From Deltaproteobacteria bacterium (GTDB lineage: Bacteria; Desulfobacterota; Binatia; DP-6), in NCBI GenBank assembly GCA_005879795.1, contig VBKJ01000135.1, positions 286 to 64,285 on the forward strand: a DNA stretch of 64,000 nt, in the 5' to 3' direction. Both the position numbers and the translations under genes were made by a program. Each line of letters opens with the position of its first letter. The first letter of the stretch is position 1. Below are positions 5,568-59,224 of this stretch, piece by piece. The notes under the pieces are model-generated. The model was not told the DNA's origin. It made no database searches and was given only the letters and a program-made list of their open reading frames with translations.

Positions 5568-6980
5568 ATGGCGACCCCGGCCGCCGCGCTCGAGCTGGAG
5601 CGCGCCCAGCCGGGCGCCCTGCCGCCCGGCCCGCGCCTGCCGGCCCTCGTCCAGTTCCTGCACCTGGGCTTCCGCCCGATCGCGTTCCTCGAGGAGTGCG
5701 CCCGGCGTTACGGCACGCCGTTCACGCTCCGGGTTCCCGCGCGGCCGCCGCTGGCGATGTTCAGCGACCCCGAGGCGATCCGGGAGATCTTCACCGGGGA
5801 TCCCGAGACGCTGCGCGCGGGCGAGGCGAACAACCTGCTCGAGCCCATGCTCGGGCAGCACTCGCTCCTCCTGCTCGATGGTCCGCGCCACCTCCGCCAG
5901 CGCCGCCTCATGCTGCCGCCGTTCCACGGCGAGCGCATGCAGGCCTACGGGCGCGTCATGCGTGAGATCGCCGACCGCTCGATCGACGCCTGGCCCGTCG
6001 GCCGGCCCTTCCCGATCCACGACCGGATGCAGGCGATCACGCTCGACGTGATCCTGCGCACCGTCTTCGGGCTCGACGAGGGCGCGCTGCTCGACCGCCT
6101 GCGCGAGCGCCTCCGCCGCCTGATGGCCTTCGTCTCCGGGACCGTCGGCGTGCTCCTGCTCATCCCGTGGCTCCAGCGCGACCTGGGTCCCTTCACGCCG
6201 GGCGGCCGCTTCGTCCGCCTCGCGCGCGAGATCGACGACCTCCTGTTCGCGGAGATCGCGCGTCGCCGGGCGGAGGGCGCGGCGGGACGCGAGGACATCC
6301 TCTCCATGCTGATTGCGGCGCGCGACGAGGACGGCAAGCCGATGAGCGACCGGGAGCTGCGCGACGAGATGATCACGCTGCTGCTCGCCGGTCACGAGAC
6401 GACGGCCACCTCGCTCGCGTGGGCCTTCCATCGCCTGCTCGGGCGGTCGGACGTGCTCTCGAAGCTGCGCGCCGAGCTGCGCGGGGTCGCCGATGATGGG
6501 CCCGCCCTGCCCGAGCACGTCGGCCGGCTCGAGTACCTCGACGCGGTCGTCAAGGAGACGGCCCGCCTGAGCCCCGTGATCCCCCAGGTCAGCCGCCGCC
6601 TGCAGGTGCCGATGCGCATCGGCGGCTGCGACCTGCCCGCGGGGATGGTCGCGTCGCCCTGCATCTACCTGACCCACCGCCGGCCCGATCTGTGGCCCGA
6701 TCCCGCGCGCTTCGACCCCGAGCGGTTCATCGGCGTCCGCCCGAACCCGTACGCGTTCTTCCCCTTCGGGGGCGGCGTGCGCCGCTGCATCGGGGCGGCG
6801 TTCGCGACCTACGAGATGAAGATCGTGCTGGCGGAGGTCCTGTCGCGCGTCGAGCTCCGCGCCGCGCCGGGCCACACCGTCCGCACCGTGCGCCGCACCG
6901 TCACCCTCGCGCCGTCGGGCGGGATGCCGGTGGTGGTGGATCGCGTGGCGCCGGCCCGGGCGCAGACGCAACCAGGATAG
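5568..6980 (+). CDS. Cytochrome P450
   Basis: I-helix AGHETT, ETAR (ExxR), FDPERF, heme motif FGGGVRRCIG. Start refined to 5568. Confidence 0.95.
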   Translation: MATPAAALELERAQPGALPPGPRLPALVQFLHLGFRPIAFLEECARRYGTPFTLRVPARPPLAMFSDPEAIREIFTGDPETLRAGEANNLLEPMLGQHSLLLLDGPRHLRQRRLMLPPFHGERMQAYGRVMREIADRSIDAWPVGRPFPIHDRMQAITLDVILRTVFGLDEGALLDRLRERLRRLMAFVSGTVGVLLLIPWLQRDLGPFTPGGRFVRLAREIDDLLFAEIARRRAEGAAGREDILSMLIAARDEDGKPMSDRELRDEMITLLLAGHETTATSLAWAFHRLLGRSDVLSKLRAELRGVADDGPALPEHVGRLEYLDAVVKETARLSPVIPQVSRRLQVPMRIGGCDLPAGMVASPCIYLTHRRPDLWPDPARFDPERFIGVRPNPYAFFPFGGGVRRCIGAAFATYEMKIVLAEVLSRVELRAAPGHTVRTVRRTVTLAPSGGMPVVVDRVAPARAQTQPG

Positions 6981-7111
6981 CCACACTCGCTGCCGCCCAT
7001 GCGCACGGTCCTTTCGTACCTGGATCCGGACCGGTGAAGGAATCGGCGAGCCGCCGAGCCTAGCAGGCCCGGGGGAAAGGTCATGAAAACCAACAGTCCG
7101 AAGGAGATGTA

Positions 7112-53692: not shown

Positions 53693-54628
53693 ATGCGCTT
53701 CGGCATCCACGCCGGCCCCCAGGACTGCTCGATCGCCGATCTCCGCCGTCTCTGGCGGATCGCCGACGAGCGCGGCTTTCACTGGTGCTCGGTCTGGGAC
53801 CACCTCTTCTCGGTGTCCGACCTCTCCGACCCGGCGAAGCCTGCCTTCGAGGGTGTGGCGACCATGGCCGCGCTCGCCTCGGAGACGAAGCGAGTGCGGG
53901 TCGGCTGCCTGGTCTTCTGCGTCTGCTACCGACCCGTCGGTCTTCTCGCGAAGGCGGCGGTCACCATCGATCACCTGAGCGGCGGGCGCTGCGAGCTCGG
54001 CATCGGGGCGGGATGGAACGAGATCGAGGCGCGCGCCTTCGGCATCCCGTTCCCGTCGATCAAGGAACGGCTCGACCGGCTCGAGGAGACGGCGAAGACC
54101 CTGCGCGCCCTCTTCGACGGCGAGCGCGTCACGCTCGCGGGCCGGCAGCTCCATCTCGAGGACGCGCTCTGCGAGCCGCGGCCGCTGCAGCCGCGCCTGC
54201 GCCTCTGGATCGGCGGGCAGGGGGAGAAGCGTCTTCTCCGGCTCGTGGCGCGCCACGCCGACGGCTGGAACGTGCCCTTCCTCGCGCCGGAGATATTCGC
54301 ACAGCGCAACGCGACACTCGACCGCTGGTGCGAGCGCGAGGGCCGCGACCCGCGCGCCATCACGCGCACCGTCAACCTGGGCCTGGCCCTCGGCCGGGAC
54401 GTGGCTCAGGTCCGCCGGCAGGAGGAGAGCCTGCGTCTCATGTTCGGTCCGATGACGGATTTCGTGCGGCCGGGCATCCTGGTCGGCACGCCGCCTCAGG
54501 TGGTCGAGCGCGTCCGGGAGTACGCCGCCGCCGGGGCGGAATGGGTCATCCTGGCCCTCCGGGCCCCCTTCGACTGGGAGGGCCTCGACCTCTTCATTCA
54601 AAAAGTAATGCCGGAGTTCCCGGCCTGA
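53693..54628 (+). CDS. LLM-class oxidoreductase, probably F420-dependent
   Basis: MRFGIH, VWDHL, ELGIGAGWN, WIGGQGEK. Confidence 0.88.
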   Translation: MRFGIHAGPQDCSIADLRRLWRIADERGFHWCSVWDHLFSVSDLSDPAKPAFEGVATMAALASETKRVRVGCLVFCVCYRPVGLLAKAAVTIDHLSGGRCELGIGAGWNEIEARAFGIPFPSIKERLDRLEETAKTLRALFDGERVTLAGRQLHLEDALCEPRPLQPRLRLWIGGQGEKRLLRLVARHADGWNVPFLAPEIFAQRNATLDRWCEREGRDPRAITRTVNLGLALGRDVAQVRRQEESLRLMFGPMTDFVRPGILVGTPPQVVERVREYAAAGAEWVILALRAPFDWEGLDLFIQKVMPEFPA

Positions 54629-54668: not shown

Positions 54669-54696
54669 TTGACCGCCCGGGTTGCCGGGCTACGAT
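54669..54696 (+). promoter_or_regulatory. Sigma70-like promoter TTGACC-N16-TACGAT
   Basis: Ends 22 bp upstream of ATG 54719, which has an AGGAGG SD. Confidence 0.5.
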
Positions 54697-54718: not shown

Positions 54719-55918
54719 ATGTCAAGCGTCCGCCGTCTTTCCCTCGTCCTGGCCCTCGCGACCGCAACCGCGCTCGCCGTGACGCCGCCGGCCCACGCGC
54801 GCCGTACCATGAAGCTCAAAGTCCCGCGCTTCGTGGTGCCGCCGCGCAGTGACCGCGAGGTGTGCACCTTCGTCCGCCTGCCGATGCGCAAGACCTTCGA
54901 CCTGGGCGGCTCGGTCATCGCGAACGTCGGTATGAACTCGACCTTCACCAGCCATCACTTCCTCATCTGGGTGTACAACGGGACCGACCTGAACGCCTTC
55001 CCGCCCAAGGGCCAGCTGGTCGACAGCAAGGCCTGCCTCGACTTCGGTCCCACGGACACGAACCGGCGCACGTTGATCGGTGGCTCGCAGCAGCCGTTCC
55101 TCCAGGTGCGCCTGCCCGAAGGCCTGGGGCAGCAGATCGAGCCAACCGTGAGCGGCGATCAGCGGGCGGCCGGCATCATCCTGAACTCCCACTGGATCAA
55201 CGGCTCGAACGCGCCGCAGCGCGCCGCGGTGAAGATCAAGCTGATGGCGGCACCGAAGCACTCGGTGCGCCAGTACGTGCTCCCGCTCTTCGACGTGGTC
55301 GCCAACGGGTTCATCGATGTACCGCCGGGCCAGAAGACGTCCGTGCACTGGGACTGGCGGCCCAAGGGGCTCGATTTCGGCGGCTCGCTCGGCGGCGGCG
55401 CCTTCCCGAAGGGCCCCGCCTGCGTCACCTCGCTCACCTCGCACATGCACAAGCGCGGCACGCTCTTCACCATCGAGTTCCTCGACGGCAGCACGGTGGT
55501 CGAGTGTGGACCACAAGGGACAACAACGTGTCTGACCGCCACGGACTACGCTGACCCGCCGCAGATCCCGTTCGACCCGCCGCTCCTCGTTAACGTGGGC
55601 CAGGGTCTGCGCTACACGTGCACGCACGCCAACGGCACGGACGGCCGCCCGATCAAGATGGGCTGCGAGGAGCAGCCCGGCGTGACCCCCGGCGTGTCCG
55701 CGGCGACCGCGCTCTTCTCCCACCGCGGCTTCACGGGTGCGGCCAAGCGCTGCGAGACCGACGCCGACTGCGCCGGCTTCGGTACGGGCAAGTGCGTCCC
55801 GGCGAACCTCGTCTTCGGCTTCACCTCCGACGACGACATGTGCATCATGCCCGGCGCGTGGTACCCCGCGAACGCGGCCGGCAACTGCGACCTGAGCGGC
55901 CTCCCCCTGCTGAACTAG
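54719..55918 (+). CDS. Secreted copper type II (PHM/DBH-like) monooxygenase homolog 1
   Basis: Signal peptide ending AHA; SHHF, LNSHW, SHMHKRG and DDMC in the order of the CuH and CuM ligands. Confidence 0.8.
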   Translation: MSSVRRLSLVLALATATALAVTPPAHARRTMKLKVPRFVVPPRSDREVCTFVRLPMRKTFDLGGSVIANVGMNSTFTSHHFLIWVYNGTDLNAFPPKGQLVDSKACLDFGPTDTNRRTLIGGSQQPFLQVRLPEGLGQQIEPTVSGDQRAAGIILNSHWINGSNAPQRAAVKIKLMAAPKHSVRQYVLPLFDVVANGFIDVPPGQKTSVHWDWRPKGLDFGGSLGGGAFPKGPACVTSLTSHMHKRGTLFTIEFLDGSTVVECGPQGTTTCLTATDYADPPQIPFDPPLLVNVGQGLRYTCTHANGTDGRPIKMGCEEQPGVTPGVSAATALFSHRGFTGAAKRCETDADCAGFGTGKCVPANLVFGFTSDDDMCIMPGAWYPANAAGNCDLSGLPLLN

Positions 55919-55943
55919 GCTTGGCGGCCGGCGGGTGCGACGC

Positions 55944-56636
55944 TCACTGCCGCGGCGACCAGCCCGCGCAGCGCAGGAGCTTCGATTCCCAGCGGTCGCG
56001 GTAGCGCAGGCCCTCCTCCATCCAGCCACCGGGCTCGGCGGGCGGCTCGCCCCGGGTGAGCAGGCGCGAGAACTGGCTCCAGTCCTCGATCCTCTGGAGC
56101 AGGACGACCTCGTGGTGGCGGCCCGTGCCGGGCGCGACGGTCCAGCACGCCGCCACCGAGATCATGTGCGTGCGCCGCGTCTGCGGGTAGAAGATGGTGC
56201 CCAGCGCCTCGACGTAGTCCTCGAGCTTGCCGGCGAAAGGCCAGCCGGTATCGTGGAGGTAGAGCGCGGGGGTCTCGGTCTGGTTTGCGGAGGGCGCGGC
56301 CGCGAGGTCGACCTCCCGGAGCGGCGACCAGGGAACGGGCAGCAGGATCTTCGCCGTCACCTCGCGGCGGAGCGTCCACACCCGGCGCTGCCAGGCGCGG
56401 AAGCGCGGATCGCTCGCCCCGCGCGCGACCAGCGCGCCCCACGTGGCCCAGTCGCGCACGGCGGTGATCGACACGGCCTGGTAGCTGGCGCCGGTGCCGT
56501 GCGCGAGCTGCCAGAACCAGAGGAGGCGCGCGCCGTCGCCCTCCTCGACGAGCGGGCGCCACTCCGCGCGCACCGCCTCGCCGAACTCCGCCATCTTGCC
56601 GCCCAGGATCTCGTGCACCTCGTGGACGTAGATCAT
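55944..56636 (-). CDS. NIPSNAP-like duplicated dimeric alpha/beta barrel protein
   Basis: MIYVHEVHEI, two similar halves (GTGASYQAVSI / GTGRHHEVVLL), ESKLL. Start refined to 56636. Confidence 0.65.
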   Translation of the reverse strand: MIYVHEVHEILGGKMAEFGEAVRAEWRPLVEEGDGARLLWFWQLAHGTGASYQAVSITAVRDWATWGALVARGASDPRFRAWQRRVWTLRREVTAKILLPVPWSPLREVDLAAAPSANQTETPALYLHDTGWPFAGKLEDYVEALGTIFYPQTRRTHMISVAACWTVAPGTGRHHEVVLLQRIEDWSQFSRLLTRGEPPAEPGGWMEEGLRYRDRWESKLLRCAGWSPRQ

Positions 56637-56796
56637 GGCGCCCGCCATAGCGAGATGCCATCGCCTCGCGCAAGGCACGCGGCGCGATCTCGCCGCAAGC
56701 GCTCGCTTTTTGCCGCCGTGCTGGGGCGAGCGCCGCGTCGAACCGCGCGGGCGGGCGCCGCTGCTCGTGGCACGTCGGTTGCTCAGTCGAGCCCCC

Positions 56797-57015
56797 ATGC
56801 CTGAGACCACGCGCAGCCTGATCCGCACTCTCCGCCAGCAGCTCGGCATGACGCAAGAGGAGTTCGCGCACCAGATCGCGGTCACCGTCTCGACCGTCAA
56901 CCGGTGGGAGAACTCGCATGCCGAGCCCTCGAAGCTCGCCTGGAAGGCGATCCGCGACCTGGCGACGCAGCGCGGCCTGCCGACGGACACGGGAACCGCG
57001 AGCGGAACGTACTGA
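56797..57015 (+). CDS. Small XRE/HTH_3 DNA-binding protein
   Basis: IRTLRQQLGMTQEEFA...STVNRWEN..AEPS. Start refined to 56797. Confidence 0.88.
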   Translation: MPETTRSLIRTLRQQLGMTQEEFAHQIAVTVSTVNRWENSHAEPSKLAWKAIRDLATQRGLPTDTGTASGTY

Positions 57016-57072
57016 CCGACCGGTCCGCCCCCCGCTTGACCCATCCGGGTCCGTGCGGGACAAGCGAGGCCG

Positions 57073-58044
57073 ATGGTACGGGCGTCCCCTCTCGTCCTCG
57101 TACTGCTCGCCCTGCCCGCGCTCGCCTCCGCCGCGACCTTCCGCGCCCATCTCCGCCGACCGCGACACGGGCTCCAGATCCGCCTCTCCCCCATCACGGT
57201 CGCGCCCCGCTCGGAGCGCGAGGTCTGCCAGCTGGTCACGCTCCGCAACCGCCGCGCCATGGATGTGAGCGAGATCACGATGGCGATGCCGAGCGGCGCC
57301 ACCTACGCGAGCCATCACTTCGCGATCTTCCTCTACCAGGGCGAGAACCCCGAGCGCATCCCGAAGGGGCCGTTCGACCGCGTCGGCTGCGCCGGGGTCG
57401 GCGACCAGATCGTGTCGCCGATCGTCGCCTTCGTGCAGCGCCCCCGGCAGACGATCCGTTTCCCCGCCGGCGTGGGGGTCGGGCTCGGGCCGCACCAGCG
57501 CCTGCTCCTCAACTCCCACTATCTCAACGGCGGCACCGAGCGGGTGACCGTCGACGTCGCGGTCGACTTCCGCGCCGCGCGCAAGGGGACGGTGCGCCAC
57601 CACACGCGGAGCTTCCAGCTCGGCACGCTCGCCATCGACGTGCCCCCCGGTCAGGCGGGCAGCGCGAGCGCCTCGTGGCTCGCGCCGTTCCCGATGAACG
57701 TCGTGTGGGTCAGCACGCACAGCCACAAGCACACGCAGTCGGTGGACGTCGACCTGGTCCGCCAGGGCGTGGTCGGGCCGCGGGAGCTGGAGACGCTCTC
57801 CTACTCGGAGCCCACGGTGAAGCTGTACGACACGCCGCTCCGCCTCGAGGCGGGCGACGGATTCCACTGGACGTGCAACTACCGGAACGACACGCCGACC
57901 CGGCTCACCTTCGGCGTCACCAGCAACGACGAGATGTGCTTCACGGTGGGCTTCTTCTACCCGGACGACGACGCGGCGCCGCTGCCGCCCGTGGCGCGCT
58001 GCTTCGGGGGCGGCGGCGGGCTCGTCTGCCCGTTCAATCACTGA
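57073..58044 (+). CDS. Secreted copper type II (PHM/DBH-like) monooxygenase homolog 2
   Basis: Signal peptide ending ASA; SHHF, LNSHY, THSHKH and DEMC. Confidence 0.8.
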   Translation: MVRASPLVLVLLALPALASAATFRAHLRRPRHGLQIRLSPITVAPRSEREVCQLVTLRNRRAMDVSEITMAMPSGATYASHHFAIFLYQGENPERIPKGPFDRVGCAGVGDQIVSPIVAFVQRPRQTIRFPAGVGVGLGPHQRLLLNSHYLNGGTERVTVDVAVDFRAARKGTVRHHTRSFQLGTLAIDVPPGQAGSASASWLAPFPMNVVWVSTHSHKHTQSVDVDLVRQGVVGPRELETLSYSEPTVKLYDTPLRLEAGDGFHWTCNYRNDTPTRLTFGVTSNDEMCFTVGFFYPDDDAAPLPPVARCFGGGGGLVCPFNH

Positions 58045-58093: not shown

Positions 58094-59224
58094 TCAGCCG
58101 CGGAAGCGCGGCATGATCTCCTTCGCGAACAGCTCGATCGAGCGCATCACCTTCGCGTGCGGGATGCGGTCGGCCTGCATGAGCGCGATGAAGTGGTCGA
58201 GTCCCGCCTTCTGGTAGCGCTCGACCTTGCGCACGCAGTGGTCGACGTCGCCGACGATCACCATGTCCTCCCGGTCGAGGTCCTCGAAGGTGCATTCGCC
58301 GCGCTGCATCTTGACGATGATCGGGTACTCCCTGGCGATGAGATCGCGGTAGGGCGTCGACTTGATCTCGAGCTCGGCGTACTCGCGCTGCATGCCGCGC
58401 CCGCTCGGGTCGGCGAAGCCGCCGAGGACGCGGAAGGCGTAGAGGAGATAGTTGATCGCGGCCTCGGTGCCGCCGTTCGCGACCGCCGCCTCGTGCGTCT
58501 CGGCCACGTGCACGATCGTGAACGCGCCCACCCTGTCGTTGACGAACCTCCCGACCGGCTTCGCGTGTGCGAGCGCGGCGCGGTAGGCGCGCACGCGGTC
58601 GGCGAGCTGGGGGACGCTCACGAAGAGGGTGAGGCCGAGGATGCCGATCCCGTTGCCGCCGGCGATCTCCCAGGACTGCGGGCTGGTGGCCGCCATCCAG
58701 ATGGGCGGATGCGGCTTCTGGAGCGGCTTCGGGAGGATGCTCCGCGGCGGCACCGAGACGAACCGCCCCGCGTACTCGAACGGGTCCTCCGTCCACATGC
58801 GCGGGATCATCTCGAGCGACTCCTGCCACATCTCGCGCGAGAGCTCGGTGTCCACCTCGAAGCCCGCCTGCTCGAACTGGCTCGAGCGGCCGGTGCCGAA
58901 CTCGACCCGCCCGTCGGAGAGGATGTCGAGCGCCGCGACGCGCTCGGCGACGCGGATCGGGTGGTTGAACTTGTGCGGCAGGAGGACGACGCCGTGCCCG
59001 AGGCGGATGCGCCTCGTGCGCTGCGCGACCGCGGCGAGGAACACCTCGGGGGCGGAGGAGTGCGCGAACTCGTTCAGGAAGTGGTGCTCCACCTCCCACA
59101 CCGTGTCGTAGCCGAGCCGGTCGGCGAGCTCGATCTGCTCGAGCGCCTCGTGATAGCAGCGATACTCGCTGCGCTCGTCGTGCGGCTTCGGGGCCTGCAG
59201 CTCGTAGAGGAGGTCGAATTTCAT
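58094..59224 (-). CDS. LLM-class flavin-dependent oxidoreductase (luciferase-like)
   Basis: MKFDLLYE, EVEHHF, RVEFGTGR, PKPLQKPHPPIW. Start refined to 59224. Confidence 0.9.
   Translation of the reverse strand: MKFDLLYELQAPKPHDERSEYRCYHEALEQIELADRLGYDTVWEVEHHFLNEFAHSSAPEVFLAAVAQRTRRIRLGHGVVLLPHKFNHPIRVAERVAALDILSDGRVEFGTGRSSQFEQAGFEVDTELSREMWQESLEMIPRMWTEDPFEYAGRFVSVPPRSILPKPLQKPHPPIWMAATSPQSWEIAGGNGIGILGLTLFVSVPQLADRVRAYRAALAHAKPVGRFVNDRVGAFTIVHVAETHEAAVANGGTEAAINYLLYAFRVLGGFADPSGRGMQREYAELEIKSTPYRDLIAREYPIIVKMQRGECTFEDLDREDMVIVGDVDHCVRKVERYQKAGLDHFIALMQADRIPHAKVMRSIELFAKEIMPRFRG

Follow-up and report, generated by a model that had tools for sequence, protein, structure and literature searches.

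Two genes in a 64,000-nucleotide stretch of the genome of a Deltaproteobacteria bacterium assigned to the uncultured Binatia (contig VBKJ01000135.1; this whole stretch, with a G+C content of ∼72%, is called the window), here named gene A and gene B, encode predicted exported proteins whose fold and copper ligands are, with high confidence, homologous to those of the two-copper monooxygenase PHM. The best full explanation of the evidence, and one that we regard as probable, is that both products leave the cytoplasm through Sec and act in the periplasm, stabilised by disulfides, as two-copper monooxygenases of the PHM/DBH type. Textbooks treat PHM and DBH as enzymes of animals, where ascorbate is the reductant. 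A and B are real, uncharacterised members of this known enzyme kind, and this occurrence in a bacterium is to be read beside a metalloproteome review of 2020, in which PHM and DBH (also DBM) are placed among the copper proteins restricted to eukaryotes (PMC7435645).

Copper ligands, fold and export of the two proteins

The structural comparator used throughout is PHM, the catalytic core of PAM, represented by the rat enzyme (PDB entries 1PHM, 1OPM, 1SDW and 3MLL; Pfam PF01082 plus PF03712). In rat PHM, one copper site, CuH, is formed by H107, H108 and H172, and the other, CuM, by H242, H244 and M314; in PHM and DBH the third CuH histidine comes ∼65 residues after the His-His pair, and the methionine ∼70 residues after the His-x-His motif. 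An initial annotation of the window, made from the sequence alone, had singled out the motifs SHHF, LNSHW, SHMH and DDMC in A, and SHHF, LNSHY, THSH and DEMC in B, as counterparts of these ligands. All of them are present in the translations, the codon coordinates agree (Table 1), and the proposed correspondence with PHM holds, for B through a profile alignment to the rat enzyme and for A through its alignment to B.

Each gene has hundreds of metagenomic homologs, and in the two family alignments (31 sequences each, with a mean column identity of 59% for B and 50% for A) the HH, H, HxH and M positions, six ligands in all, are invariant. Judged from these alignments, the conservation of the motifs is far beyond chance. 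The B-family profile aligns over positions 36-297 with residues 21-278 of rat PHM, that is, across both domains, with an E value of 0.0015. It sets H81/H82 on H107/H108 and H149 on H172 at the CuH site, and H216/H218 on H242/H244 and the pair M288-C289 on M314-C315 at the CuM site; N147 of B falls opposite Q170 of PHM. Regarding A, its H79/H80/H158 (CuH) and H242/H244/M374 (CuM) match the residues of B in a profile-profile alignment of the two families (hhalign, E = 9e-42), ligand on ligand.

The two-domain PHM/DBH fold implied by the initial annotation is borne out by structure prediction. AlphaFold2 (AF2) models built from the family alignments reached a pLDDT of 91 and a pTM of 0.86 for B, and of 88 and 0.81 for A. 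When these were compared with the PDB by Foldseek, the first 31 matches of B and the first 29 of A were exclusively PHM or human DBH, with best E values of 7.2e-15 (B) and 1.7e-11 (A) and target-normalised TM scores of 0.57-0.68, and the matches that come after this PHM/DBH block are weaker by at least six orders of magnitude.

Several points weigh against the assignment. The sequence identity to PHM is only 15-19% in the Foldseek pairs, Pfam Cu2_monooxygen (PF01082) matches neither A nor B at E values up to 1, gene A has no match in Pfam or NCBIfam, and the A-family profile alone fails to reach PHM by sequence. That the ligands come together as two sites in three dimensions is read from the alignment to PHM within the shared fold, and in the literature searched we found no experimental study of any bacterial PHM/DBH homolog. 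The initial annotation had looked to the two Pfam models of PHM for confirmation, which came in part: Cu2_monoox_C (PF03712) is present in B (34.2 bits, above the cutoff of 23) and absent from A, and the other model is absent from both. The N-terminal domain is recognised solely through the profile-to-PDB alignment and the fold, searches of the PDB with the single sequences of A and B (phmmer) returned nothing relevant, and NCBIfam covers none of A, B and the NIPSNAP-like protein encoded between them. Members of the A family, which Pfam and NCBIfam miss, are mostly labelled 'hypothetical protein', with a precomputed PF03712 match in a few of them; B-like proteins appear in some JGI records as 'copper type II ascorbate-dependent monooxygenase-like', and Pfam already flags B.

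Both proteins carry a predicted signal peptide, that of A having, as read from the sequence, a positive n-region, a hydrophobic core and AHA ahead of the cleavage point. The corresponding N-terminal helix is modelled with low confidence in A (pLDDT 56-65) and likewise in B. An ATG at 54695 was considered as the start of A and set aside, as the family alignment fits 54719 (MSSVRR...) better. The signal peptide of A also contains a twin-arginine-like SVRRLSL (54719-54760). Export by the Tat route was considered and rejected, given that the RR pair is not conserved in the A family and that ten conserved Cys favour Sec export with periplasmic folding; for A, Sec thus appears more likely than Tat. 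In the family alignments, six Cys are invariant in B and ten in A, and together with the predicted signal peptides they fit an oxidising compartment.

A and B are paralogs that share 26% identity (BLASTP, E = 3e-28); their alignment leaves B with a gap of ∼53 residues where A has an insert. This Cys-rich insert of the CuM domain lies between the strand bearing C301 and the Met loop, is modelled at a pLDDT of 80-95, and contributes four Cys (C316, C345, C351 and C359) that are invariant in the A-family alignment. Because the two are old paralogs with different pockets, A having its disulfide-rich insert of 53 residues beside the Met loop, they probably differ in their substrates. Two length variants of the insert occur within the A family, a short one (...DADCAGFGTGKCV) and a longer one (...GPDPTECPATDPAYPGRTFTGNCV). 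The A-family profile also bears a weak likeness to the disulfide-rich head domain of a P2X receptor (E = 0.38), which is probably compositional only.

Bacterial relatives, substrate pocket and electron donor

A profile of the B family, searched against 1.84 billion proteins, matches 3793 clusters at E ≤ 1e-3 and 1560 at E ≤ 1e-10, the clusters being representatives at 50% identity. Pfam misses most of these relatives, and since the profile yields so many clusters, the PHM/DBH class, as far as profile matches tell, is not rare in bacteria. Ligand conservation was surveyed in 127 full-length representatives, mutually ≤50% identical and drawn from the best 150 matches. All six ligands are kept in the aligned columns of 116 of them (H218 in 127, H216 in 124 and M288 in 120), and 7 of the 11 exceptions reflect a mere alignment gap at the Met column, the row of gene A itself included.

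These numbers bear on the possibility that A and B are non-catalytic copper proteins on a PHM scaffold, devoted to buffering or electron shuttling, or else binding proteins like PNGase F. The fold is common to the copper-free PNGase F superfamily, and a PNGase appears at rank 49 of the Foldseek matches of A (E = 1.2e-3). However, we consider this possibility unlikely, because both PHM ligand sets, with the Met of the O2 site included, are conserved across thousands of clusters, because a cytochrome c fusion found in relatives and described below suggests electron-consuming enzymes, and because no cop/cus copper-homeostasis genes lie nearby in the neighbourhoods examined. Moreover, the top Foldseek ranks are filled by PHM and DBH, and A and B differ from PNGase F in keeping the full copper ligand set.

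That A and B are active monooxygenases is, instead, probable. In the mechanism proposed for them, the N-terminal beta-sandwich would hold the His3 electron-transfer copper site (CuH), and the C-terminal one the His2Met oxygen-activating site (CuM). By analogy with PHM, CuM would bind O2 and hydroxylate a C-H bond of the substrate, and CuH would pass the second electron across the solvent cleft that separates the domains, with the electrons possibly supplied by a periplasmic c-type cytochrome. Copper binding, monooxygenase activity, the source of the electrons and the kind of substrate are, in this scheme, what we infer for A and B.

Regarding the substrate, PHM holds the glycine carboxylate and the backbone of its peptidyl-glycine through R240, N316 and Y318. 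According to the profile alignments, the equivalents are S214, F290 and V292 in B, and T240, I376 and P378 in A. The initial annotation had noted Thr or Ser in place of R240 and proposed a substrate other than a peptide: the alignment sets S214 opposite R240 and so supports the first point, and the second is strengthened by the replacement of all three residues. Among the 127 relatives, the R240-equivalent is T, S, A or V and never R (0/127), the N316-equivalent is I, F, M or V, and the Q170-equivalent is N, E, Q or D. A substrate other than peptidyl-glycine is therefore a reasonable reading, as the three residues have given way to Ser/Thr and hydrophobic ones, and the same replacements suggest that it may be uncharged and probably hydrophobic.

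The opposite view, that A and B are true peptidyl-glycine-type enzymes which hydroxylate a secreted or ribosomal peptide at the alpha position of its C-terminus, in a bacterial form of amidation, draws on the fact that PHM provides the closest solved structures and that A and B retain the Met-Cys motif with its disulfide partner. It is nonetheless very improbable, considering that the substrate-holding residues are S/T, F/I and V/P, that R is absent at the first of these positions in 127 relatives, and that no PAL-like lyase or precursor-peptide gene is conserved nearby in the homolog neighbourhoods examined.

The relatives also offer a clue to the electron donor. About 20 of the best 150 carry an N-terminal extension of ∼130 residues with CxxCH or Cx4CH plus a conserved MPLG (Table 1), and the haem motif stands at a fixed distance, ∼175 residues ahead of the HH motif. 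A profile of this extension matches, in the PDB, FoxE (E = 1.4e-4) and the cytochrome domain of hydrazine synthase alpha (104 positions, E = 5e-3), along with many cytochromes c6 and, weakly, Pfam PSCyt1. These haem-c-fused proteins belong to the same superfamily as A and B (E = 1e-28 to 1e-39 with the B-family profile, A1), and share with them the HH/H/HxH/M ligands and an acidic residue, E or D, at position E48, ahead of the first conserved Cys. They differ in possessing a mono-haem cytochrome c domain, which A and B lack, and in having M, S, G or Q where A and B have a Cys directly after the ligand Met. Some of them add further N-terminal modules, namely DUF5648 and FG-GAP repeats. In a FastTree phylogeny of the core domain, each of the two families is monophyletic (support 0.985 for A and 1.0 for B), and both fall with 8 other clusters into one subclade (0.96); the haem-fused proteins form a clade of their own, apart from A and B.

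Since a mono-haem cytochrome c domain is fused to the N-terminus in this sister clade, A and B might receive their electrons from a periplasmic c-type cytochrome instead of ascorbate, an idea that we hold as possible and stop short of calling likely. The argument is indirect, and it is weakened by the fact that A and B have no cytochrome domain and that no cytochrome gene adjoins them.

Gene neighbourhood and transcription

Between 53.7 and 59.3 kb, the window contains, in this order, a luciferase-like monooxygenase (LLM) gene, gene A, a NIPSNAP-like gene, a helix-turn-helix (HTH) gene of the XRE family, gene B and a second LLM gene (Table 1). The NIPSNAP-like and XRE genes that the initial annotation had placed between A and B are both recovered by Pfam. 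The NIPSNAP match (PF07978) spans residues 9-105, and the gene that contains it is convergent with A and divergent from the HTH gene.

Table 1. Features of the A/B locus in the window, and haem-fused relatives of the encoded proteins
Feature	Position	Strand	Basis or detail
Upstream LLM gene	53693-54628	+	Pfam Bac_luciferase, 162 bits; no signal peptide
Sigma-70-like promoter match, TTGACC-16-TACGAT, 22 nt upstream of the A start	54669-54696	+	Consensus match only
Gene A, exported PHM-fold protein (predicted), 399 aa	54719-55918	+	Open reading frame, family alignment, AF2/Foldseek
A, predicted signal peptide MSSVRRLSLVLALATATALAVTPPAHA, ...TPPAHA/RR	54719-54799	+	Read from sequence
A, putative CuH ligands	H79/H80 54953-54958; H158 55190-55192	+	Motifs TSHHF, LNSHW
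A, putative CuM ligands	H242 55442-55444; H244 55448-55450; M374 55838-55840	+	Motifs SHMH, DDMC
A, Cys-rich insert of the CuM domain, ∼53-60 residues (∼residues 305-365)	55631-55813	+	Gap in B
NIPSNAP-like gene, 230 aa	55944-56636	-	Pfam NIPSNAP PF07978, 31.3 bits (cutoff 22.3); no signal peptide
Small XRE-family HTH gene, 72 aa	56797-57015	+	Pfam HTH_3, 44.1 bits
Gene B, exported PHM-fold protein (predicted), 323 aa	57073-58044	+	Pfam Cu2_monoox_C, family profile, AF2/Foldseek
B, predicted signal peptide, ...ALASA/AT	residues 1-20	+	Read from sequence
B, putative CuH ligands	H81/H82 57313-57318; H149 57517-57519	+	Motifs SHHF, LNSHY
B, putative CuM ligands	H216 57718-57720; H218 57724-57726; M288 57934-57936	+	Motifs THSH, DEMC
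Downstream LLM gene, convergent with B	58094-59224	-	Pfam Bac_luciferase, 183 bits; no signal peptide
Relatives with a CxxCH fusion			P0264, P0271, P0288, P0289, P0295, P0321, P0346, P0355, P0377
Relatives with a Cx4CH fusion			P0263, P0274, P0277, P0290, P0292, P0315, P0331, P0360

The same stretch is found in many soil metagenomes. A pattern scan of the GTDB species genomes gave 6 loci, a number too small to survey the taxonomy; these closest relatives of B in species-representative genomes are all in Binatia-like metagenome-assembled genomes (MAGs) that are labelled Candidatus Binatia, Candidatus Binatus, 'delta proteobacterium' or Thermodesulfobacteriota, and the source named for one protein homolog is Candidatus Binatia bacterium. 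The bacterium that carries A and B is thus most likely a member of the Binatia that lives in soil.

From the LLMs, acyl-CoA dehydrogenases (ACADs) and hydrolases around A and B, the initial annotation had further suggested an extracytoplasmic oxidation pathway with a possible local regulator; spelled out, A and B would act in it together with these neighbours and the NIPSNAP-like protein, under the XRE regulator. In favour of this proposal, the order ACAD-ACAD-LLM-A-NIPSNAP-HTH(-B-LLM)-hydrolase occurs in four other contigs, in which the identity of A goes down to 47%. The segment LLM-A-NIPSNAP-HTH-B-LLM recurs whole in two MAG contigs, with identities of 80% and 63% for B. Two further contigs, in which A is at 59% and 47% identity, retain the block ACAD-ACAD...LLM-A-NIPSNAP-HTH...hydrolase-MoeA-acyltransferase-ADH but have no B, and the second LLM is missing along with B in one of them and present without B in the other. 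NIPSNAP adjoins A in all four related contigs, where A is also preceded by the upstream LLM.

B and, separately, the second LLM act as insertions or deletions inside the conserved syntenic block (a JGI contig, L016). In one relative that lacks B, the gap from the HTH gene to the second LLM is 375 nt; in another, the hydrolase gene comes directly after the HTH gene. The closest MAG relative (L001) has a SAM-methyltransferase gene (6248-7099) between the second LLM and the alpha/beta hydrolase, a place where the window has none.

Away from this block, the surroundings of the homologs change. Homologs of B are found divergent from an MlaA/MlaC ABC cluster (L006), downstream of DltD-ACP-ligase-MBOAT-M20 genes (L014), upstream of LolA (L018), or amid unrelated or unrecognised genes. 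One A homolog is located downstream of a Kdo/LpxL/Lpt cluster (L015: KdsA/B/D, LpxL, LptC/A/B), where the upstream LLM does not precede it, and another downstream of amidohydrolase-P450-radical SAM genes. No partner gene is conserved across the neighbourhoods of A and B homologs examined. Small open reading frames upstream of distant homologs (L003 and L015) were considered as partners and rejected, as they are mutually unrelated and have no informative Pfam match. Genes for the trafficking or modification of envelope lipids or lipoproteins (Mla, Lpt/Kdo, Dlt/MBOAT, LolA) are present in 4 of 8 unrelated contexts. This envelope theme is a weak hint and may be due to chance, yet it is the sole theme that recurs among the contexts.

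Expression was followed through Logan contigs from the soil metatranscriptomes of one study. Seven pieces match A exactly, between 54712 and 55692 and in three runs; the NIPSNAP gene is covered by one contig (56032-56189) and B by another (57869-58019, with one mismatch), and none lies within either flanking LLM gene. One contig starts at 54712, 7 nt ahead of the start codon of A. The sigma-70-like promoter match in front of A is a single site, versus 0.1 expected from shuffles. Because the metatranscriptome pieces concentrate on A, they suggest that A has a transcript of its own in soil; it counts against this that the contigs are of low depth and may include DNA carry-over.

Taken with these data, a common pathway is highly unlikely. 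In the window, the translated LLMs, ACADs, hydrolase and NIPSNAP-like protein show no signal peptide, which assigns these neighbours to a different compartment from that of A and B, and the conserved block takes in the unrelated MoeA, acyltransferase and ADH genes as well. Furthermore, two of the blocks lack B, homologs of A and B elsewhere have unrelated surroundings, and A has its own promoter-like site, with transcript contigs on A and none on the upstream LLM. As the neighbours lack signal peptides, unrelated genes share the block, and B comes and goes, the conserved order most plausibly reflects plain synteny between related genomes, in which B was independently gained or lost. The conservation of the neighbourhood foreseen in the initial annotation is thus present in the four related contigs, but only as long synteny, and it does not extend to distant homologs; the extracytoplasmic pathway itself finds no support. 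As for the local regulator, where B is missing, the HTH gene stays beside NIPSNAP, so it goes with the latter and is not a regulator specific to B. The A and B genes are independent units, outside any operon-encoded pathway with their neighbours.

Comparison with known enzymes and biological meaning

Among known enzymes, A and B come closest to PHM and DBH. They share with PHM two beta-sandwich domains over ∼300 residues, CuH and CuM ligands at aligned positions, a Met-Cys motif with its disulfide partner (C268-C289 of B corresponding to C293-C315 of PHM), an amide residue at the Q170 position, and a disulfide-rich protein that is predicted to be exported. Unlike PHM, they have neither a PAL domain nor a PAL partner, their host is a bacterium, in which ascorbate is unlikely as the reductant, and A carries the extra Cys-rich insert of ∼53 residues. 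DBH, tyramine beta-monooxygenase and MOXD1 have the same catalytic core and ligand set, and human DBH (PDB 4ZEL) appears at Foldseek ranks 5 and 9 for B and 15 for A. In contrast to these enzymes, A and B comprise the core alone, at 300-370 mature residues, without a DOMON domain (no Pfam match) and without a dimerisation domain.

Binatia are alkane- and C1-oxidising bacteria. A wider and more speculative reading, which we put forward as rather doubtful, is that A and B belong to a large, hitherto unrecognised bacterial class of PHM-type copper enzymes that are fed by periplasmic c-type cytochromes, independent of ascorbate, and hydroxylate hydrophobic non-peptide substrates of the cell envelope, with envelope lipids or hydrocarbon-like compounds as candidates. 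If this were true, copper C-H hydroxylation of the PHM type would be a widespread periplasmic chemistry of soil bacteria rather than an animal speciality.

To judge by the 3793 clusters, soil bacteria possess the two-copper catalytic core in abundance and retain all its ligands; what sets their versions apart is the substrate pocket and, in some clades, a cytochrome that is part of the protein. How electrons cover the long distance between CuH and CuM has long been debated, and a small bacterial homolog reduced to the core would be a handy system in which to study it; such a homolog could also yield new catalysts for C-H hydroxylation.

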